Positions 2,083 to 26,697 of a DNA stretch of 30,314 nt are shown here, piece after piece. The stretch is from a virus (taxonomy: Duplodnaviria; Heunggongvirae; Uroviricota; Caudoviricetes). The number at the start of each line of letters is the position of its first letter. The stretch's first letter is position 1. A program made the translations under genes and the position numbers. Under the pieces are notes generated by a model that saw only the letters and a program-made list of their open reading frames with translations, had not been told where the DNA came from and did not search any database. The stretch is from IMG/VR virus record IMGVR_UViG_2675903650_000004, positions 1-30,314 of that record; one strand, given 5' to 3'.

Positions 2083-2708
2083 ACCGCCAGCACCTTACTG
2101 GCAGTGATGTACCGCGCGCGCCGGTCGTCGATGCCGTTCCGGCCACCATTGATAATCAGAGTTACACGTGCAATATCGCCGGTATACTTCATGCATCCTT
2201 TGCTGGCGAAGAACCACGCCGCGCTACGAGCCGCATATTCGTCCTGCGCCAGCAGTTCAGGGCTCTCCAGCAGGTCAACCTTCAGGCCGTTTCCGCAATC
2301 ACGATAGTTATTCAAACCGGTAATCTGGATAAGTCCGCGCCCTCGGTAATTCCAGCCATCACCAGGGGCATTGTTCCCCATGCGTTTGCTGTACACCAGA
2401 TTGGCGATCGCACGCTGGCGCTCCAGAGGCAGAGACTTCTCATATGCTTTTCGTCCCAGCGTGCTGGCCTGGTCCGGCGTGATGCGTCCGGCACGGATAA
2501 ACCCGGACAGTCCATTAACGCTGTAGTTGAAGTTTTCCTGTAACCGGGTAAATCCTCCGGACTCATGCCCGACCTGCGCGATAAACATCGCCTGGTCATC
2601 TGGTTTGATAATGCCAAACTCATTCATGGCAGCAGTGATATGCAGAAACCAGCGTGCGGCCAGCGCCTCGCTAATACCAGCAGCTCGCTGGAATTGTTTA
2701 ATCTCCAT
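2079..2708 (-). CDS. endolysin, glycoside hydrolase family 19 (chitinase-like lysozyme)
   Basis: Start taken at [11 protein letters not shown] (ATG 2708), not the upstream extension of the ORF track; GH19-type endolysin signature ([10 protein letters not shown]...[12 protein letters not shown]...) recalled from Salmonella phage endolysins; overlaps holin stop. Confidence 0.88.
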
Positions 2709-3006
2709 GTTTAGACCTCGATACTTTGAAAATTTGAACGACGTTACCGCGCGTTTTAATAACCGCAGCGAGCATGACAGCGTTGATAATGACCTCAGAT
2801 AAATCCACAGCCATTGGCGTGCGTAACCAGATTGCATAGGCGACACGAACAGGAATACTGGCCGCAGCAACAATCAGGAAATAAGCAAGCCACCCTCCCC
2901 ATCTTCGGTGTTGTGACCCGTTACGCCGAAATGTGACAACGCGAATTGCTATGCCAGTACAAATAACTGCATTGGTGATAAGAAAAAAAAGCTCATACGT
3001 TGCCAT
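2698..3006 (-). CDS. holin-like small membrane protein
   Basis: 102 aa, 2-3 predicted TM helices, charged C-terminus; RBS GGGGAG 8 nt upstream; directly upstream of and overlapping the endolysin gene. Confidence 0.7.
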
Positions 3007-3397
3007 CGTCTTTTCTCCCCGGAATTAACTCACGTGGATTATCGGAACGGTGATAGAGCCAGATGCCAATTCGTACTGCGACGATTGCTGACACGAATGC
3101 GCCAGCAGAGAAAACAACCCCTTTCTCGAAAGAGTCCTGCGTGATAGTAGGGATCAGGCTAGCTACGCCTATAAGAATTGATGCTGCTGGTTTGTAGAAA
3201 AGAAGCCCACAGAGAAAGCTAAGCATCGACAAGAGTACGCGACGACTAATTGGGTACTCTACCGCAGAGGTAACAAAAATCACCGCTCCTGACAAAGACC
3301 CCAACGCTACTTCTGGAGGTACTCCTGCTATCACCGCAGCTAGAGAACCAAGACTAAGCCATTGATTTAATGTTTCACTGGTTAGTTGAACTGACAT
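2993..3397 (-). CDS. second holin/antiholin-like membrane protein
   Basis: ORF 2993..3406, about 4 hydrophobic helices; ATG at 3397 preferred over GTG 3406; first gene of lysis cassette after 400-nt untranslated region. Confidence 0.6.
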   Translation of the reverse strand: MSVQLTSETLNQWLSLGSLAAVIAGVPPEVALGSLSGAVIFVTSAVEYPISRRVLLSMLSFLCGLLFYKPAASILIGVASLIPTITQDSFEKGVVFSAGAFVSAIVAVRIGIWLYHRSDNPRELIPGRKDDGNV

Positions 3398-4859: not shown

Positions 4860-4886
4860 AAAAGGGGCTTTCAGCCCCTTTTTTTA
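4860..4886. terminator. bidirectional intrinsic terminator between convergent acyltransferase and tailspike genes
   Basis: Stem AGGGGCT / AGCCCCT with 3-nt loop, A-run upstream and T-run downstream (coordinates approximate). Confidence 0.7.
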
Positions 4887-6986
4887 CGTGGTAGTTGCGG
4901 ATACCTTCCATTCACCAGTTGATACGTATGTCCACTTCCACGGTCCGGTAGAAACCGGACCAAGCAATTCCCACTTGGTGCCAAACGGGAAATTAGTTGT
5001 ATCTCCCGTGGGTGGTGATACTGATAGAACCGTTATATATCCTGACTCAAGTCTGCATAATGCAGTCCATGATGAGTTTCCGGTTATACTATAGGTGCCG
5101 CCTGAATCAACCTTGTTGATCCAGCTCTGCCCACTCCCCCATCTAATAGAATCAGTGGTGTTGTCGGGAATTACCGCACCATTAAAATTTGCAGTTGCAT
5201 CATTAAGATATATGTATTTGCTAGATGAGACTCCAGAGTAACCAGAAAAATGAGATGAAACCAATGAGATGAAACACGATTCCAGAGATACAGCTTCAAC
5301 TCCTCCATCATGATGATTAACCCCTCTAAATGCAGTTACGTTAATTCGACTACCATTTATATCAAATATTTTACCAGTGCCTTCTTCGCTTCCGCATCCA
5401 GATAGATTTACTCCAGTACAATCTTTAAATTTATAGCCAGTACCATTAACGAAGTCAGCAGCCAAACAAGTCAGGCTGCTATATGTAATGTTATTAAAAT
5501 CATATGCAACACCTGAACATGTTTTCACATAAATATTGTTTAAATTATATGTGGTTCCACCTGCTTCGATTTTAACTCCAGTAACGACATCCTGAATAGT
5601 AATGTTTTCCCATGTCTGCAACCAGCTATCACTAGTGCGATAACCGGTTTTCACCCTATGAATATACAGGTCCTGAAGGCGCACATTGTAACTGATAGCG
5701 CTATATATCCCGTAATCACAAGGATTGGGCGCAGTATTTAGAATACTCAATCCAATTATTCTGGTGCTTCTTGTTTGTTTCCCGCTTAAATCACCTGATG
5801 TGTCACTATCCATATCTACCGCAACAATAAAGTCTTTGGAGAAGCTGTGTGGTACACCCTGCCACATGCGATCCGGAACGGTTTTAATATCGTTACCTGT
5901 TTTAATTAATCCACAGGAATCCATACCGCACCCCTCCAGCGTGACACGTGGAGGCACGATAGCGCCATACTTAATATCGTAAAATCCATTGAGTCTGAGC
6001 GTACCTCCTTCATATGGAAGGCATGCAGTCAGGCGTTCAAAGGCTTCACTGTTTTGCTCAGCCGTACATGATGTCATCATGCCACCGTTCTCTACCGGAA
6101 TATCGATGTGGCTTCCAGCTCTCTTCCATCGCTTACCGCCGGGGGTAACAAAAATATTCACACCATCGTCAGCTTCAGAACTGTCAAACGACATGAACAC
6201 CCCACCTCCAAGACCGGGGGTATCGCTATAATAACCTCTGACAATAATTTGCTGGTTTACTGACGAAGGTTCAGTATTTCTTAATGTGGCCACATCAGGG
6301 CAGGAACCGATATTTTTAAACCCATCGGTGGCAGCAAGCTGCAACATGACATCAGTAGCGCTCCCAGATTCCGGGAGAACCATGATTGGGTCTCCTGAAT
6401 CATCCATTGCAACAATCTTATTCTTACGTTGCTCAACGCCGGGCAAAGTTGATATCGGTTCGGGAGTTCGTAGCGTTCTGCTCAGGTTTGTTTCTGCAAG
6501 CCCGTCAACATAATTTTTCGTTGCTGCATCTTGCGGCCTAGATGGGTCACGAAGATTACGAATATAGTTATTCATCGCGTCGTAATAATTAGCCACGAAC
6601 GACGGCTTTCGTAGCGCCAGACTGAACCAATTTCGAACCTGCTGGATCAGCATCGTTAGCTTATCAAAAGCGTTCTCATGCACTTCTGCAAAGAACTTAC
6701 CCTGATTACGCAAATCAGTTTCCTGCGTAACCGGTAGCTCTCGATATATAGAAATCAGATAACCGTTAGCCAACACCTTCGACAGAATTACATTACCACC
6801 GTTATATCCTCCCGCCCCGGTAACTGTGTAATCAGTATCAAGAGCAAGAACAGTGATATTTTCATCAAGGTCAACCACTTGTACTACCAGATCAGATTTC
6901 TGGAAAATCCTGAAGGTATACGGAAATGATGTCGTAACACCGTTACCTGTGTATTCGTTGTGGTCAACTTCGGTTGAGACCGTCAT
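4884..6986 (-). CDS. tailspike / tail fibre with T7 gp17-like N-terminal anchor and beta-helix-like receptor-binding body
   Basis: 700 aa; N-terminal about 150 aa match the conserved podovirus tail-fibre anchor pattern (YTGNGVTTSFPYTF...DYTV) as remembered for T7 gp17; remainder rich in G/S/T/N beta-strand repeats typical of polysaccharide-binding or depolymerase tailspikes. Confidence 0.85.
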   Translation of the reverse strand: MTVSTEVDHNEYTGNGVTTSFPYTFRIFQKSDLVVQVVDLDENITVLALDTDYTVTGAGGYNGGNVILSKVLANGYLISIYRELPVTQETDLRNQGKFFAEVHENAFDKLTMLIQQVRNWFSLALRKPSFVANYYDAMNNYIRNLRDPSRPQDAATKNYVDGLAETNLSRTLRTPEPISTLPGVEQRKNKIVAMDDSGDPIMVLPESGSATDVMLQLAATDGFKNIGSCPDVATLRNTEPSSVNQQIIVRGYYSDTPGLGGGVFMSFDSSEADDGVNIFVTPGGKRWKRAGSHIDIPVENGGMMTSCTAEQNSEAFERLTACLPYEGGTLRLNGFYDIKYGAIVPPRVTLEGCGMDSCGLIKTGNDIKTVPDRMWQGVPHSFSKDFIVAVDMDSDTSGDLSGKQTRSTRIIGLSILNTAPNPCDYGIYSAISYNVRLQDLYIHRVKTGYRTSDSWLQTWENITIQDVVTGVKIEAGGTTYNLNNIYVKTCSGVAYDFNNITYSSLTCLAADFVNGTGYKFKDCTGVNLSGCGSEEGTGKIFDINGSRINVTAFRGVNHHDGGVEAVSLESCFISLVSSHFSGYSGVSSSKYIYLNDATANFNGAVIPDNTTDSIRWGSGQSWINKVDSGGTYSITGNSSWTALCRLESGYITVLSVSPPTGDTTNFPFGTKWELLGPVSTGPWKWTYVSTGEWKVSATTT

Positions 6987-7090: not shown

Positions 7091-7105
7091 TTACCTTTCA
7101 GGTGA
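7091..7105. promoter_or_regulatory. operator-like palindrome TTACC-N5-GGTGA (site a), about 105 nt upstream of tailspike start
   Basis: ATTACCTTTCAGGTGA; 14/15 identical to site d at 26096; lies in the divergent region between tailspike and antirepressor module. Confidence 0.4.
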
Positions 7106-7181: not shown

Positions 7182-7439
7182 ATGCAGCAGTATCACTATC
7201 CACTGGAAGACGGATTTACCGAAAGGATTCACACGCCGGGAGGCGTCAGATTACTGGTGGAGGGATCGCTCTTGATGAAATTACTCCGGGATCTCGATAA
7301 GGATGGATTTAATGTCGATGGCCCACTTGCCGAACTGACTGCACTGATTAACTACGTCACCAGCTCACAGATGTCTATGCAGGATCTGCAAACACATCTC
7401 GACTATTGTGCCGAACAATTACGAAAACAAACCAGATAA
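7182..7439 (+). CDS. small protein paralogous to the C-terminal domain of the downstream antirepressor (candidate SOS-induced antirepressor)
   Basis: ORF 7164..7439 (TTG) with ATG at 7182 and GGAG RBS; residues GGVRLLVEGSLLMKLLRDLDKDGFNVDGPLAELTALINYV...DLQTHLDYCAEQL align by eye with the C-terminus of ORF 7755..8465. Confidence 0.6.
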   Translation: MQQYHYPLEDGFTERIHTPGGVRLLVEGSLLMKLLRDLDKDGFNVDGPLAELTALINYVTSSQMSMQDLQTHLDYCAEQLRKQTR

Positions 7440-7442
7440 GGT

Positions 7443-7485
7443 TTGCAATTACCAAGTGGAGTGCTTATATTTACCTTTGAGGTAA
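7443..7485 (+). promoter_or_regulatory. promoter (TTGCAA-17-TATATT) with overlapping operator TTACCTTTGAGGTAA (site b)
   Basis: Sigma70-like hexamers with 17-nt spacer; 15-bp palindrome begins at last base of the -10. Confidence 0.5.
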
Positions 7486-7598
7486 ATTTACATCGCACTC
7501 CTCTTGTGCCATAGTAATCGGGTACTGGCAAAATCCAGTGCCGGGATTGGCGTCCCGAGTTACTAAGTGGCGCATACCACGCCAGACGTGGTTTTTTT
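7486..7598 (+). ncRNA. candidate structured leader or small RNA ending at an intrinsic terminator upstream of ant
   Basis: No ORF with RBS; several local hairpins (ACTGG/CCAGT, CGGGA/TCCCG); terminator ACCACG-CCAGA-CGTGGT followed by T7 at about 7576..7598. Confidence 0.3.
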
Positions 7599-7754
7599 AT
7601 GCGTTAAGCACAGCCATATCCGAATTATGGTGGGCTGGGCAGGGGTCCGAAAGGACGCCGGTACCACTTAGGCCGGTACGCCAACCTTGTCCAGTTCACC
7701 ACCAGTAATTGGCGTTGCGGTGGTGATTAAAATCACTAAGTGGAGATAACCACC

Positions 7755-8465
7755 ATGGCTAATGCTCAAACTGCCATCTTCAAATTTGAATCTGTTAACC
7801 CTATCCGTTCCATCATTATCGATGGCCAACCATGGTTTGTAGCCCAAGACGTTTGTAGTGCGCTGCGTATCCAAAACGTCACCCAATCACTTGAAAAACT
7901 GGATGATGATGAAAGGTCTATGTTCAACATAGGGCATGAACATCGTGCAATTTTTGACAGCCGAGTAAAAGAGATCAACATCATCTCCGAGTCAGGCCTC
8001 TACACACTGATCCTCCGCTGCCGCGATGCGGTGACACCAGGCACTATCCCCTACCGCTTTCGTAAATGGGTTACAGGTGAGGTTCTTCCTCAGATCCGCC
8101 GCACCGGAAGTTACATTAAAAACTCGCTCCCGCAGGAAGAACGCATAAAGATGGTTGCCGACCAGGTAGCCAACGCCACGGCGTCAGCAGTAATACAGGC
8201 AATGAAGATAGAGAACAAAACCTACAGTGCCCCACTGAAGCCCGGCTACCGCAGCCTGATTCACTCGCCGTCTGGTGTTCTCGGCCTGACGGAGAACTCA
8301 CTGCTGATGAATCTGCTGAACCAGTTACAGGAAGACGGGCATGACGTATCGGGCGCGGCGGCGGAACTGACCACCATGTTCTGCTACATCGTCGGTGTGA
8401 GTAAATGCCTGCGTGATATCCAGACCCACGCGGAATACATCAACGACAAGGCAGGATTCTTCTGA
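7755..8465 (+). CDS. phage antirepressor (Bro-N / Ant N-terminal domain plus C-terminal domain)
   Basis: ORF 7740..8465 (GTG); ATG 7755 with GGAG 9 nt upstream; Bro-N-type signature FKFESVNPIRSIIIDGQPWFVAQDVCSALRI. Confidence 0.85.
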   Translation: MANAQTAIFKFESVNPIRSIIIDGQPWFVAQDVCSALRIQNVTQSLEKLDDDERSMFNIGHEHRAIFDSRVKEINIISESGLYTLILRCRDAVTPGTIPYRFRKWVTGEVLPQIRRTGSYIKNSLPQEERIKMVADQVANATASAVIQAMKIENKTYSAPLKPGYRSLIHSPSGVLGLTENSLLMNLLNQLQEDGHDVSGAAAELTTMFCYIVGVSKCLRDIQTHAEYINDKAGFF

Positions 8466-8509
8466 CGGGCGGTGGCACATGGATGTGCTTTTAAATAATT
8501 CTGTACAGA

Positions 8510-8552
8510 TTGCAGACTGTGGGTGAATAGCGTACTATTACCTCAAGGGTAA
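8510..8552 (+). promoter_or_regulatory. promoter (TTGCAG-17-TACTAT) with overlapping operator TTACCTCAAGGGTAA (site c)
   Basis: Same architecture as site b: -35, 17-nt spacer, -10, then 15-bp TTACC-N5-GGTAA palindrome. Confidence 0.5.
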
Positions 8553-8612
8553 ACGGATTGGTTTCATTTTTATTAATCCGTGTAATGAACTTATGAGATA
8601 TGAGGTAATGTC

Positions 8613-8792
8613 ATGCGAAACGAAAAATTGCAGATGCGTAGAGCGCAAGCTGCCGCAAGACGTTCTTTCAATGGAAGCGTAGAGTACGTAAAAGTTACTA
8701 TGACAAAAGATCACGCAAGTCGCGTATCCCGCGCTTTCTTTGATTCTCGTAACAATAAGGAAAATTATGAGTTCGTCTGCGTCGCAGAATGA
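8613..8792 (+). CDS. hypothetical 59-aa basic protein (candidate antitoxin or regulator)
   Basis: Not in ORF track (below length cut-off); ATG 8613 with GAGG 7 nt upstream; translation MRNEKLQMRRAQAAARRSF...; 3' end overlaps start of ORF 8767 by 26 nt. Confidence 0.35.
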   Translation: MRNEKLQMRRAQAAARRSFNGSVEYVKVTMTKDHASRVSRAFFDSRNNKENYEFVCVAE

Positions 8793-9312
8793 TAAAAATC
8801 AAATTGTCAGATATAAGGGTCGAGTATTGCATACGCAAAATTTCTCGGCCCTTTGTGCATCTGATCTTGAGCTGAAGAAAGTATCTGATGCCTTTACCCA
8901 GTATTGGAAAACGGGATACCATCCATCTCTTGGTAAAGATGCTGCATTTGCTCGTCCGACAGAAATGCTTAAACTAAATGTCAGGCATACTCATGTCGAT
9001 AACCAAGACTATATTCCAGAAGATAGTGATAAAAAACACACTGGTAAAAAATCATCTTGGGATGCATGGAAAAATATAGCGTCTGTACAAGTAAAATGCA
9101 TACCAACAAGTGATTGCTTTTTAGTTTATTCGGTAAATCACAATCGTGATGCGCTGGTTATGTTTTTTGTTGACGCAGATGCTCACAACATAACTGAGCA
9201 AGAAGAGTTTAAAGAGGCAGCAATCACTATCAGTTATCAATTCTTTGAGAAAACAAAAACAGAACCAATGCCTTTAGAAGAAGATCTTTTTTCTGATAAA
9301 TGGAAGGAATAG
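8767..9312 (+). CDS. hypothetical protein with YafO-like toxin motif (candidate toxin or abortive-infection effector)
   Basis: ORF 8740..9312 (TTG); ATG 8767 with AAGGA RBS; central G[KR]DA...RP...H.H.. and LVY...D.D.H pattern resembles YafO-family toxins as recalled from memory; AT-rich; own promoter/operator upstream and terminator downstream. Confidence 0.7.
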   Translation: MSSSASQNDKNQIVRYKGRVLHTQNFSALCASDLELKKVSDAFTQYWKTGYHPSLGKDAAFARPTEMLKLNVRHTHVDNQDYIPEDSDKKHTGKKSSWDAWKNIASVQVKCIPTSDCFLVYSVNHNRDALVMFFVDADAHNITEQEEFKEAAITISYQFFEKTKTEPMPLEEDLFSDKWKE

Positions 9313-9332
9313 CCCGCGCCGCGGGCTTTTTT
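9311..9332 (+). terminator. intrinsic terminator
   Basis: GC stem GCCCGC / GCGGGC with 3-nt loop then TTTTTT, immediately after stop of ORF 8767..9312. Confidence 0.75.
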
Positions 9333-9404
9333 GTGGACGAAACAAAAGTCAGTGCTACACTCATTGACGCCACATCGAGGTGGCTTATAGATGGAAATTT
9401 CACA

Positions 9405-9566
9405 ATGAAAAAAGCATTTGCTGCACTGTTCGTTTTGTTGTCTCTGGTAGCTTCAACTCAGGCCTTTGCCGGTCGTTGTCAGCACGACAGCGATACTGCC
9501 GCTGACGGCTCCCGCTGCGGTGGGCGTTCTGCGGATTCCCGCCCGGGCGGCGGTGGCATTCGTTAA
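9405..9566 (+). CDS. signal-peptide mini-ORF (53 aa; small exported peptide or remnant of a truncated secreted-protein gene)
   Basis: Internal ATG of ORF 9300..9566; classic Sec signal MKKAFAALFVLLSLVASTQAFA then a GC-rich 31-codon tail with two Cys; weak RBS; possible promoter TTGACG at about 9364. Confidence 0.35.
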   Translation: MKKAFAALFVLLSLVASTQAFAGRCQHDSDTAADGSRCGGRSADSRPGGGGIR

Positions 9567-9604: not shown

Positions 9605-10018
9605 TTATAAAGATGACTGATATTTTACAACTCTGTTCATGGCATCTTTTTTCACCGAGCTGATATCAGTTCTTATTTTGGCTTCGTCATTACTGCTTAT
9701 CATGCTATTAATTTTTTGCACTGACATGCCGTTTCTTTCAGCCATTGCACATACAGCAGCATCGTATGAAGAACTCGCTGCGATGGATATCACCTTGTTA
9801 CACTCAAACACAGCACCTTCAGCAATATCAGATGCCGATGAGGCTGGCTTGGTATAAGTCTTGACGTAGTGATCAATACAACTATCCTTCGCCGTCTTGG
9901 CAAGAGAAAAATCCATTTTAACTTTGTCGCAATATGCCTTATCAACACCGTCATAAACATCATAGGATGTCGAGCAAGCGGATATCAAAAATACCGATAA
10001 CAGCAATAATTCCTTCAT
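9605..10018 (-). CDS. lipoprotein (moron at distal end of the ejection-protein operon)
   Basis: 137 aa; signal peptide with lipobox ISAC; AAGGAA RBS; AT-rich relative to upstream structural genes; Cys-rich periplasmic domain. Confidence 0.8.
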   Translation of the reverse strand: MKELLLLSVFLISACSTSYDVYDGVDKAYCDKVKMDFSLAKTAKDSCIDHYVKTYTKPASSASDIAEGAVFECNKVISIAASSSYDAAVCAMAERNGMSVQKINSMISSNDEAKIRTDISSVKKDAMNRVVKYQSSL

Positions 10019-10027
10019 TGTTGTTCC

Positions 10028-12502
10028 TTATTGCGGAGTGACATCCTGAGGTCGCCACCAGTATGTCTGGTTAAACTCTTTCTTTGAACGTTGCTCCATT
10101 TTACGCAAATAGCCTGGTGAAAAATACTCCTGCATCTGGTTAAAGATCATGTGATCGAGAGCCGCCTTCAAATACCAGAGATTCGCACCAGGCATCAAAC
10201 CTTTCCCAAGCTTAACCAAATCACCACCAGTCTGCTCATTCTTCCCTTCCACAGCATTTAACGGTATACCCTGAGCAATCTTCACTACGTCATCAACCAG
10301 ACCAGCTACCGGGCCAAGCATCGACGCTAGTGCGCCGCTCCCGTACCTGGTGTGGTCAGAGAAAAGAAAATCACCATACAACCCTGCCCCACCACCTTTT
10401 AAAAATGCATTTATCCAGAATTTAACCATGTTGTCACCGGTCATTTCTTTTGGATTTCTCCCATTAATAAGATCAGTAATCTGCATGGAAAGAGCACCAA
10501 GCATGGTTGTGCTTGCTAAAAACGTTGCTATATATGCCGCACGCCCACCAGCAGACGGCATCCCCATAGCTCTATGCCAGTGACGCATAACTACCGAGAT
10601 AGGGAACGATTTAAACAGGAAAACACTTCTCGTTAATTCACCTTTCCATGTTCCACGCTGAAGACCAGACCCTACGAACATCTGTTCACGTGCGCCCGGT
10701 GTAATAACAGCCATATCAACTTCTTCAGTTACGGCACCGAGCAGTTTACGCATTGCCTCAAATTTCACACGTTCAGGCTCACCAAGATGTTTAACTGCTG
10801 AATCAGGGATACGCATAATGCTTTCCGGTGTCAGCATCGTATTATTACCGTTCCCCCAGTCCTCCTGTTGCGCCAGCTTCCATACGCTCCAGTCTGTGTC
10901 AGTAATCCCTTTGCTTTTCAGGATACGAAAATCAGAGTCATCGAGGCTACGAAGGTCTGGTGTCCGTGACACTACTTCTCCCAGGCTTCCCATCATGGTT
11001 ACGCCATAAGCGCGCTTGTGCGCATCTGACCATGCTGTAAGTCCACTGGCACGCATTACCGCCGTTGCCGCCCAACGAGACACAGACGGCCCCATATTAT
11101 CCATCGCCCAGCGGTTAACGCTGCCAAGTAGAGATTCCATCGCCAGACCAGCGCGGCGCGCCCGCGCAAGCTCAGTACGGTTCGTTGGGTCCATAGCTTC
11201 AAGCTGGTTGCGGAATAACTGGTTCATTGGAAGGTTGGTAACCTTCGCAGACAGATATATGGTTCCAAGATCAGAGAACGATGACAGCAACGCGGATCCG
11301 AGCCTGCTGGCAACCAGCCAGTTTCTGATATTGTCAGACCAGCGCGCGATGTGAGGATTCGCAACAGGCTGTGTCTTTCCGGAAATAAAGTTGTACAGGT
11401 TCTCTGTTTTGTTCGCCAGCCGCTCGACGCTACCGGTTTTACTCGGGTTAGCTGTTGCCGTTTCTGCCTTCACCTGATCAAGAAGAGAGCGGAAAACATG
11501 ATCAGGGTTTGGGCCATATGTTTCCACCAGTGCAATATCTTTACTGATACCTTCCAGGTGACCGACCATGATTTCCCATAGAGAGCGATCGCCATAAAGT
11601 TGCTGATATTGCAGATAGGAATCTGCATCTTTGAAATGTATCTGTCGTGATGCATTACCACGGTTAGCACGTGCGCCGGAAATTCGCATTCCGGTATCAG
11701 TAAGCTTATTCAGCCCACCAGTAGCGATCGTGTTATAAGCCTCTCCAAGAAATGCAGACAACTCGGCATCGTTCATCAGTTGTCCATCGGCTCGGATATA
11801 ATATTTGCGATCCAGCTTACCTATAACATCGCTAACCCACTTATCCTTTGATACCGCCCCAACCTTTTCCATAGAATGATGTTGAGGGATTCCCCAGTTT
11901 TCGAGATAGCCAATGTCCCCACCAGCATCATTAAACCGGCGGCGCAGTAGATCTGTCACTTCTCTCCACGCCTTAGCACCTTTTCTTGCTTTAGCATTGC
12001 CAGTATTTTGCCCTCGCATTTCATATACCAGGTCACGCACGCCAGCTTCATCTTCAAACAGGCCAAAAAAGCGAGGATCAACTGCTTCAAATGCCTCTTG
12101 CAATTGACTCAATGCATAATCACGAGTGGCTTTTGTTCTGGACTCAACAGAGAGAAAATTCGATTTACCGTCTGCATTAAAAGCAATAGTACGGTTAAGA
12201 GCGCCGAGTTTCCCATCAGCCCCTTGATAGCTATTGATAAATTTATCCAATCTCTGACGTGCGGCTATAGTGAGGGCCACACGACGTTTCTTTAATGCCG
12301 CTTCTCGCTGTAATTCTTCAGATGCCAATTGTGCTGCACGATATAGCCGCTCTGATTCGGAAAGTTGTCTCCACGACATCGGGTCATCACGAGCAATGGA
12401 GCGCATATTTCGATAAATGCGGTCTTCAATGTTCTGTATTTCTCGCGCCGTTAACGTGCGCTGCGCCGCCTGCTGGACCGCTTGTATACATTCCTGTCTC
12501 AT
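10028..12502 (-). CDS. internal virion / DNA-ejection protein (large)
   Basis: 824 aa, tightly packed in late operon after other core proteins; position and size as in podovirus ejection proteins. Confidence 0.8.
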   Translation of the reverse strand: MRQECIQAVQQAAQRTLTAREIQNIEDRIYRNMRSIARDDPMSWRQLSESERLYRAAQLASEELQREAALKKRRVALTIAARQRLDKFINSYQGADGKLGALNRTIAFNADGKSNFLSVESRTKATRDYALSQLQEAFEAVDPRFFGLFEDEAGVRDLVYEMRGQNTGNAKARKGAKAWREVTDLLRRRFNDAGGDIGYLENWGIPQHHSMEKVGAVSKDKWVSDVIGKLDRKYYIRADGQLMNDAELSAFLGEAYNTIATGGLNKLTDTGMRISGARANRGNASRQIHFKDADSYLQYQQLYGDRSLWEIMVGHLEGISKDIALVETYGPNPDHVFRSLLDQVKAETATANPSKTGSVERLANKTENLYNFISGKTQPVANPHIARWSDNIRNWLVASRLGSALLSSFSDLGTIYLSAKVTNLPMNQLFRNQLEAMDPTNRTELARARRAGLAMESLLGSVNRWAMDNMGPSVSRWAATAVMRASGLTAWSDAHKRAYGVTMMGSLGEVVSRTPDLRSLDDSDFRILKSKGITDTDWSVWKLAQQEDWGNGNNTMLTPESIMRIPDSAVKHLGEPERVKFEAMRKLLGAVTEEVDMAVITPGAREQMFVGSGLQRGTWKGELTRSVFLFKSFPISVVMRHWHRAMGMPSAGGRAAYIATFLASTTMLGALSMQITDLINGRNPKEMTGDNMVKFWINAFLKGGGAGLYGDFLFSDHTRYGSGALASMLGPVAGLVDDVVKIAQGIPLNAVEGKNEQTGGDLVKLGKGLMPGANLWYLKAALDHMIFNQMQEYFSPGYLRKMEQRSKKEFNQTYWWRPQDVTPQ

Positions 12503-26005: not shown

Positions 26006-26432
26006 ATCAATGACTCCGTACGCAATTAAATTATTACCAATTTAACCACATATGATTTATTTATCGTAGATAGTTGACATTTAACGCACGAATTATTACC
26101 TTTCAGGTAAGCAAAGAGTTCATTCCGGTTATTAACCTGACTGGCTTGTCGTTAAATTGAACAGGTGGAGTGAGCTTTTATTTTGAGCAGTACGGCGTAT
26201 GGCACATGCGCCGATAGCGGTCTGGATACGTTTAAGGGGCACCCTCCCTTGCTCGAGCAAACGAACCAGGTAGCCGGAATGTGCAAGTCGAGCGGTTTTA
26301 TTCCGCGCACGGGGATTCACCATCCCGGCGATTCGGTGTGACGCCTCGGAAGAGACGAGGGTACAACGATGAGAGCATTTATGGAGCCGCGACAAAGTGT
26401 GGCGCCTTAACAGGCTAAGTGCTCTCAGCGTT

Positions 26433-26509
26433 GTGGCATTAGCTCAGTTGGACAGAGCAACCGCCTTCTAAGCGGTTGGTCGCAGGTTCGAATCCTGCAT
26501 GCCACGCCA
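26433..26509 (+). tRNA. tRNA-Arg (anticodon UCU)
   Basis: Cloverleaf read by eye: acceptor GTGGCAT/ATGCCAC, D-arm GCTC-AGTTGGAC-AGAGC, anticodon stem ACCGC/GCGGT with loop CTTCTAA, T-arm GCAGG-TTCGAAT-CCTGC, 3' discriminator G + CCA. Confidence 0.85.
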
Positions 26510-26552
26510 GAATCACGCCTAAGGACCGTGATGCCAGAAGTTCCAGGGGCTT

Positions 26553-26596
26553 GGCGGTGATGGTTTCCCTTGAAGGACTATCACCGCCCTTTTTAC
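26553..26596 (+). terminator. intrinsic terminator downstream of tRNA
   Basis: Long imperfect stem GGCGGTGATGG / CTATCACCGCC followed by CTTTTT. Confidence 0.6.
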
Positions 26597-26672
26597 AGCA
26601 GGACGCCATTGCGATGACTTCATGCTGTAAACCCGTACAGCCACGGAAGGCATAACTCATTGCTTCCAGTTC

Positions 26673-26697
26673 GCCCGGTTCGCCGGGCATTTTTTTA
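26673..26697 (+). terminator. intrinsic terminator with UUCG-type tetraloop immediately upstream of the Gp49-like gene
   Basis: GCCCGG-TTCG-CCGGGC then ATTTTTTT; ends 10 nt before RBS AAGGTGA. Confidence 0.7.

Follow-up and report, generated by a model that had tools for sequence, protein, structure and literature searches.

A small plus-strand cassette in a stretch of 30,314 nucleotides (IMG/VR virus record IMGVR_UViG_2675903650_000004; hereafter the window, meaning the whole stretch analysed) encodes a basic protein of 59 amino acids (aa) and, beginning inside its gene, a protein of 181 aa. On balance we think it fairly probable that the pair is a type II toxin-antitoxin-like cassette, in which a YafO-type RNase would be accompanied by a cognate 59-aa neutraliser, and that it is carried as exchangeable, repressor-gated cargo of Uetakevirus prophages. 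The host element is a prophage of the epsilon15/phiV10 type (Uetakevirus) in Escherichia coli, close to Escherichia phage TL-2011b; its lysis-gene end adjoins yfgG-yfgH-yfgI and its integrase end adjoins guaA. Positions 8400-9400 are 100% identical to E. coli strain VE-T9, this being the only interval over which that identity was confirmed, and 98.7% identical to TL-2011b. YafO arrests translation by cutting mRNA, and only mRNA that is being translated is cut (PMC2814082); its ribosome dependence is debated (PMC11980606). Its Pfam family, PF13957, is one of 13 toxin families with the BECR fold and an antitoxin-toxin gene order (PMC11980606).

An earlier note on this DNA, made by a model from the letters alone, had pointed to a YafO-like pattern in the 181-aa protein. 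The pattern proved to be real, since Pfam PF13957 (YafO_toxin) matches residues 46-148 (E 1.1e-5) and scores 25.9 bits where the curated cut-off is 25, the alignment spanning profile positions 3-88 of 101; the spacing had been misread, as the motif runs GKDA-3 residues-RP rather than with two residues between. The protein is already annotated in RefSeq, where the Prokaryotic Genome Annotation Pipeline (PGAP) has given it the product name "type II toxin-antitoxin system YafO family toxin" (WP_001555165.1, YP_007001995.1), and the YafO family, its fold and its gene order are likewise already known. The close relatives are a small group of proteins of ~180 aa, from Enterobacterales wherever the source names a species. 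A profile built from 23 of these long-form relatives gave only 70 matches (E up to 1e-3) among 1.84 billion representative proteins, and the matches grade from long forms of 160-200 aa to proteins of 130-150 aa. PF13957 is matched by 53 of the 74 aligned members, the best with an E value of 5.4e-29. G56 and H76 never vary among the long and the short forms, and F43, D58, P64, S115, Y121 and H140 hardly do, as would be expected of a retained active site.

The extra N- and C-terminal segments that the earlier note had described were correct mainly at the C-terminus. Residues 16-45 align to the N-terminus of canonical YafO, so that only the first ~15 residues, which are disordered, are additional; the true additions are a conserved C-terminal tail at ~161-181 (PMPLxEDLFSxKW) and an insertion at ~78-112 that had gone unmentioned. 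AlphaFold2, run on the 74-sequence alignment, returned a model with a predicted local distance difference test score (pLDDT) of 92 and a predicted template modelling score (pTM) of 0.87, in which the insertion and the tail are both confidently folded. The predicted structure has the RelE/ParE (BECR) alpha/beta fold common to RelE, HigB, YoeB and YafQ. A Foldseek search with the model gave no significant match, the search being too insensitive; a fold search of BFVD gave nothing significant, and sequence and fold searches of the PDB turned up no solved YafO-family structure. Because the family profile, the profile search and the predicted fold agree, we conclude that the 181-aa protein belongs to a genuine long-form branch of the YafO family with, as modelled, a RelE fold. 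No description of this long-form branch was found in the literature searched. The protein is mildly acidic, with an isoelectric point (pI) of 6.0, its ratio of non-synonymous to synonymous substitution rates (dN/dS) is 0.06-0.10 relative to the window sequence, and it would be expected to act as an RNase.

Judged by its codons and its persistence, the 59-aa open reading frame (ORF) is also a real gene. An ORF of 55-63 aa lies directly upstream of the toxin gene in every close-family locus examined, including 21 diverged or independent loci, and partner-related forms accompany toxins down to ~29-34% identity. The frame stays open over 52-84 codons in every locus of the window-type family (to ~29% toxin identity), while the other two forward frames over the same region contain 1-12 stops. 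Relative to the window, the non-overlapping codons 1-51 have a dN/dS of 0.18-0.29, obtained from the six loci with unsaturated synonymous sites, and where the DNA is saturated the protein sequence is still conserved. Homologues of the same length (59 aa) are 75-97% identical. PGAP leaves the ORF uncalled in 20 of the 20 full-length E. coli matches listed, the TL-2011b annotation gives it as hypothetical, and the PHROG to which the protein belongs (6685) is of unknown function.

The pair is found in three contexts, namely Uetakevirus-like prophages, a siphovirus tail-gene cluster, where the toxin is 45% identical, and beside a restriction-modification gene (locus L054), where it is 29% identical. 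In the restriction-modification-linked copy the two genes do not overlap, and the 53-aa partner ends in DVEFV. The C-terminal motif (Y/V)EF(V/C) is thus kept without gene overlap and is therefore constrained in its own right; in the overlapping copies this constraint probably holds the disordered N-terminus of the toxin, MSSSASQ, constant. The 59-aa protein has no match in Pfam, NCBIfam, PADLOC or, by profile search, the PDB. It shows no similarity to the 97-aa antitoxin YafN, in keeping with what had been claimed for it, or to a 115-aa protein at 29357..29704 with which a common basic-arm-plus-strand motif had been suspected. A ribbon-helix-helix identity was considered and dropped, having rested on a strand-helix pattern read by eye that no tool supported. 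Searches of the literature, including by protein accessions and PHROG number, found no description of the partner and no experimental work on the cassette.

Other branches of the YafO family have upstream partners of several kinds, including small basic proteins beside short PF13957-positive toxins, acidic proteins of 65-71 aa and a protein of 133 aa. Type II systems are known to exchange antitoxin partners, and because such mixing and matching is usual the pairing seen here is unclassified rather than extraordinary. A further arrangement was observed in a tail-spike-adjacent prophage slot (2142-3103 in loci L055 and L056), where a 200-aa YafO-family protein stands behind two small genes, the first for a basic protein of 62-64 aa (KTVRMTDEHKQLL...) and the second, which runs into the start of the toxin gene, for a very acidic protein of 65 aa. 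Three components may thus be combined in this variant.

The layout of the cassette is that of a type II system, with two small, adjacent, co-directional genes between one promoter and one terminator, and the siphovirus copy likewise has its own promoter-like sequence and a strong terminator. Both ORFs are where the earlier note had placed them, with the predicted pI of 10.0 bearing out the basic character of the 59-aa product; they share 26 nt, an overlap kept in most of the related loci examined, and a Shine-Dalgarno sequence (AAGGA) placed within the first gene suggests that translation of the pair is coupled. The unit is AT-rich, as had been noted, with a GC content of 0.38-0.42 across 8400-9400 against 0.50-0.56 in the flank, and it does lie between the tailspike and ejection genes, in a plus-strand accessory block bounded by the tail-spike gene (4884..6986, minus strand) and the internal-virion/ejection genes (10028 onward, minus strand). 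The terminator is indeed strong, its hairpin (9311-9327) having a 7-bp stem with 6 G-C pairs and a folding energy of -13.7 kcal/mol.

The cassette promoter scores only 7/12 against the consensus, which is under the threshold of the promoter scan, yet diverged loci preserve the TTG of the -35 and also the -10, which in most of them reads TAATAT, amid flanks that vary. Adjoining the -10 is the palindrome TTACCTCAAGGGTAA, which is invariant in the alignment of diverged loci while the sequence around it drifts. In the general form TTACC-N5-GGTAA the palindrome is heavily over-represented, with four exact and four one-mismatch sites in the window against 0.51 expected (7091-7105, 7471-7485, 8538-8552, 26096-26110 and 29238-29270) and 14 sites in the complete TL-2011b genome against 0.9 expected. 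In TL-2011b pairs of palindromes flank the helix-turn-helix repressor gene gp10 on both sides. The VE-T9 prophage (L068), which over the cassette has the sequence of the window, shows this arrangement too: its repressor gene (10111..10695) is bracketed by sites at 9977 and 10039 on one side and at 10751 and 10799 on the other. The promoter of the antirepressor (ant) operon (7443-7471) and its operator (7471-7485) have a geometry identical to that of the cassette, and single or paired sites also precede the small terminase gene and a tRNA moron.

This distribution has the pattern of an immunity operator, to which the prophage repressor (WP_000836290.1) would be expected to bind. Since that pattern lies at the promoter, the cassette is likely to be repressor-gated; most likely the prophage repressor keeps its expression low until induction or infection brings relief. 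The "repressor-controlled promoter" of the earlier note is therefore supported, its modest consensus score notwithstanding, with a consequence that the note did not consider: the operator suggests that the genes are switched on by derepression and are not expressed constitutively in the lysogen. No description of the TTACC-N5-GGTAA operator was found in one paper on Uetakevirus regulation (PMC9782041).

Comparison with related phages separates the slot from its contents. Homology of the window to phiv142-3 spans 8223-8557 and resumes at 9286, nine codons before the toxin stop, and both phiv142-3 and HEMP4 retain the terminator, which marks the right-hand end of the slot. Between these edges the two phages carry a different pair of ORFs, of 55 and 146 aa (2666-3294 in L063, phiv142-3; 2657-3285 in L064, HEMP4). 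The 146-aa ORF is missing from GenBank, which in its place lists a 52-aa ORF in another frame. The comparison indicates that promoter, operator and terminator belong to the phage, and that the coding sequence between them is interchangeable cargo. At its motifs the 146-aa product can be aligned in register with YafO (GK, WHYH against RHTH, SNECIHY against TSDCFLVY), but it reaches an hhalign E value of only 0.016 and has no Pfam match; from this alignment a distant homology to the YafO family is possible without being established. Among 5426 complete E. coli genomes, 459 match part of a 1-kb query, mostly the slot flanks only, and 61 match at least 80% of it and so carry this cargo. The cassette is thus probably repressor-gated cargo in a fixed expression slot, an arrangement for which no description was found in the literature searched.

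These observations can be combined into a proposed mechanism. In the lysogen transcription would be held down, to be released on induction, on infection of a repressor-free cell or on inactivation of the repressor. The resulting bicistronic mRNA would yield the 59-aa protein and then, by coupled translation, the 181-aa RNase. The 59-aa protein would bind and mask the RNase directly, with the conserved C-terminal (Y/V)EF(V/C) as the contact, a step to which the co-evolution of the two proteins and the conserved motif lend indirect support. RNase left free would cut mRNA, likely on the ribosome as YafO does, and translation would stop. As for the role, which is the weakest step of the proposal, we lean towards two possibilities: that the cassette helps to compete with or exclude other phages, or that it shuts off the host during lytic growth. 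Competition or exclusion is suggested by the behaviour of the slot as a cargo site and by the neighbouring genes (an O-antigen acyltransferase, a lipoprotein and a small exported peptide), while the repressor gating suggests action during derepression.

Several observations weigh against a repressor-gated toxin-antitoxin cassette. The PF13957 score passes its cut-off by less than 1 bit, BLASTP of the 181-aa protein against E. coli K-12 YafO gave no match, and hhalign of the family profile against the same protein reached only E 0.006 over 51 columns in the N-terminal half. The partner is basic and the toxin mildly acidic, the reverse of the usual RelE-type charge pattern, and because partners differ across the branches of the family (acidic, or 133 aa) a pairing function cannot be generalised. 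There is no cargo-specific palindrome that would point to autoregulation, a usual trait of type II systems: the sole conserved promoter palindrome is the phage-wide operator, part of the slot rather than of the cargo, and an inner inverted repeat at 8550-8584 is not conserved. Silencing by the repressor in lysogens also makes readings of the cassette as an addiction module or as lysogen-protecting abortive infection less natural. Finally, a match to a described defence system was not obtained, as neither the two proteins nor the products of neighbouring genes matched any defence model in PADLOC-DB v2 (E up to 1). What stands of the earlier proposal is a conserved, selected upstream gene overlapping a toxin gene that is of YafO/RelE type by profile and predicted fold; the suggestion that the system was undescribed applies to its unclassified partner and not to the toxin, whose family is known and which PGAP already names.

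The alternative that survives best, although we regard it as unlikely, is that the 181-aa protein is the phage's own lytic-cycle RNase and not a toxin kept in check. Released from repression, it would act much as T4 RegB does, reshaping or silencing the early mRNAs of host or phage, with the 59-aa protein as its cofactor, specificity factor or timing regulator. The operator that overlaps the cassette promoter is found again at the promoter of the antirepressor and ahead of the small terminase gene, a distribution that points to expression with lytic functions; an active RNase would have such a fold and such conserved histidines, a basic partner would suit a cofactor that binds nucleic acid, and the lack of a PADLOC match is as this reading would have it. 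The module nevertheless occurs outside phages, beside the restriction-modification gene, with a strong promoter of constitutive appearance, and within the siphovirus tail genes it is a self-contained moron. Only about 1 in 7 slot-bearing prophages (61 against 459 genomes) carries the cassette, which is therefore dispensable for lytic growth, and a small gene overlapping a following toxin gene is the standard type II layout (PMC11980606).

We find it improbable that the 181-aa protein is a RelE-fold decoy or inhibitor that does not cut RNA but occupies ribosomes, or sequesters host antitoxins or toxins, as an anti-defence factor whose new function would be supplied by the insertion and the C-terminal tail. 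Antitoxin or toxin mimics borne by phages are known, for example T4 Dmd. The long form does add ~50 residues to the canonical domain, with both additions confidently folded in the model, and its mild acidity is unlike most RelE-type RNases. Against this, the residues G56, D58, H76, S115, Y121 and H140 are invariant or nearly so and are common to the short PF13957-positive proteins, purifying selection is strong over the whole protein, and an active toxin would require the kind of conserved, co-evolving partner that is encoded upstream.

That the 59-aa ORF is not a protein, its conserved region acting instead at the RNA level, as an extended 5' leader or a regulatory RNA, for a toxin gene that stands alone, would accord with its omission by PGAP and with a 5' region that folds with pairing between a Shine-Dalgarno sequence and its complement (8537-8545 with 8601-8609; z -2.15), but is effectively excluded, on codon-level evidence, by the open frame, the selection on its non-overlapping codons and a good Shine-Dalgarno sequence, and also by the position of the complementary arm, which is merely an operator half-site upstream of the expected transcription start. 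A riboregulator in the 5' untranslated region, comprising the same pairing and the hairpin at 8550-8584, was rejected as a main explanation for that last reason and because the inner hairpin is not conserved; an Rfam scan found no family matching the 5' region of the cassette.

Returning to the toxin-antitoxin-like reading, the nearest described system is YafN-YafO of K-12 (dinB-yafN-yafO-yafP), which the cassette resembles in having a toxin of the PF13957 family by profile and, with the antitoxin gene first, a toxin start near or overlapping the upstream gene (PMC11980606). It differs in the length of the toxin (181 aa with the insertion and tail, against 132 aa for K-12 YafO), in its partner (59 aa, basic and without a family, against the 97-aa, Phd/YefM-type YafN) and in its control, as it is prophage cargo under a phage repressor operator rather than a chromosomal SOS operon. 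HigB2 of Vibrio cholerae (PDB 5mje) and other HigB, RelE, YoeB and YafQ proteins are only 4-17% identical to the 181-aa protein, with non-significant Foldseek scores, and HigB systems have the toxin gene first whereas here the small gene comes first.

Among phage proteins, T4 RegB is reportedly an RNase with a RelE/YoeB-like fold, and it is made during the lytic cycle. It is not known to have an antitoxin partner and lies outside the YafO family; similarity to it was sought only through the BFVD fold search, in which nothing was significant. The setting of the cassette, directly downstream of an antirepressor operon with a C4 RNA, is like that of the immunity-I regions of P1/P7 (c4-icd-ant) and P22 (mnt-arc-ant). 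The P1 immI operon is under the control of the C1 repressor, and here the ant-operon promoter and the cassette promoter carry the same operator. We know of no RelE-fold toxin pair in the immunity-I regions of P1/P7 or P22, and in contrast to those regions the toxin pair here is a separate transcription unit in a neighbouring slot.

A fuller reading, in which a derepression-triggered RelE-fold toxin is joined to a new family of small basic antitoxins in a repressor-gated exchangeable slot, must be held as doubtful, but it would have clear consequences. SOS induction, or the antirepressor of an invading phage, would fire the RNase by inactivating the repressor, and the slot, which in phiv142-3 and HEMP4 holds a highly diverged two-gene cargo, would be a diversifying locus in conflicts between phages. 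Should the wiring prove real, expression of the toxin at derepression and not in the quiet lysogen bears on how prophage toxin-antitoxin systems act in induction, exclusion and phage competition, and the cassette would be a clear case of a toxin pair wired to the immunity repressor in a fixed promoter-operator-terminator slot whose cargo is swapped among related phages; failing that, it is an accessory toxin-antitoxin module of the ordinary sort. Few RelE-type toxins have been studied as little as YafO, and the long-form branch supplies a confident structural model. The unclassified family of small basic partners, missed by RefSeq in the 20 full-length E. coli matches listed, merits a family model.

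Table 1. Features of the cassette and its immediate surroundings, in window coordinates.
Feature	Position	Strand	Remarks
Hairpin after the antirepressor gene	8474..8491	+	Stem GGCACA/UGUGCU; ant stop codon ends at 8465
Cassette promoter	8510..8538	+	-35 TTGCAG (8510-8515), 17-nt spacer, -10 TACTAT (8533-8538)
Operator palindrome TTACCTCAAGGGTAA	8538..8552		Takes in the final base of the -10 and the expected start of transcription
Exchangeable cargo segment	8558..9285	+	Excludes the operator, the last 9 codons and the terminator
Shine-Dalgarno sequence GAGGT of the 59-aa gene	8602..8606	+	6 nt 5' of the ATG; nearly invariant in the alignment of diverged loci
Gene for the 59-aa basic protein, presumptive antitoxin/partner	8613..8792	+	C-terminal NYEFVCVAE conserved
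Shine-Dalgarno sequence AAGGA of the 181-aa gene	8757..8761	+	Inside the 59-aa ORF
Gene for the 181-aa long-form YafO-family toxin	8767..9312	+	Predicted RelE/ParE (BECR) fold
Intrinsic terminator, stem AGCCCGCG/CGCGGGCU with T-run	9311..9333	+	Overlaps the toxin stop codon

The hairpin that follows the antirepressor gene (Table 1) is retained in diverged loci through compensatory changes in its stem (GGCGC/GCGCC, GGCGCA/UGCGCC). Its T-run is weak, and it probably serves as a weak terminator or stabiliser dividing ant from the cassette.

Further upstream, before the gene for the BRO-N antirepressor (7740..8465), Rfam models identified a C4 antisense RNA at 7623-7706 (+, 66 bits), an isrK-like Hfq-binding RNA at 7522-7598 (+, 63.5 bits) and, just under the gathering score, the a1/b1 targets of C4 at 7509-7561 (+). 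By these matches the region 7509-7706 is an immunity-I module of the P1/P7 type in a Uetakevirus prophage. Before the ant promoter an 85-aa ORF (7182-7439, +) shares 43% identity with the last 74 residues of the antirepressor (E 2e-15) and from its sequence would seem to be a stand-alone copy of the Ant C-terminal domain; ORFs of 82-83 aa like it occupy this position in other prophages.

Downstream of the cassette lie a gene for a 53-aa protein with a signal-peptide-like start (9405-9566, +; PHROG "membrane associated protein"), preceded by TTGACG-16-TATAGA, and a convergent gene for a 137-aa protein with a lipoprotein-type start (MKELLLLSVFLISAC) (9605-10018, -; PHROG 8691, function unknown). 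The two proteins are possible surface or exclusion factors. Beyond them is an 824-aa gene of internal-virion/ejection type, at 10028-12502 (-) in the window and 10629-13103 in L001, which PGAP calls a pseudogene with an internal stop in VE-T9; the window ORF is uninterrupted, identity between the two having been checked over 8400-9400 only. Elsewhere, a plus-strand moron at 26070-27079 stands among the minus-strand structural genes, with TTGACA and an operator at 26096, followed by a tRNA-Arg(TCT) gene (26433-26509) and a gene for a gp49/Sf6 gene 66-family protein (26708..27079).

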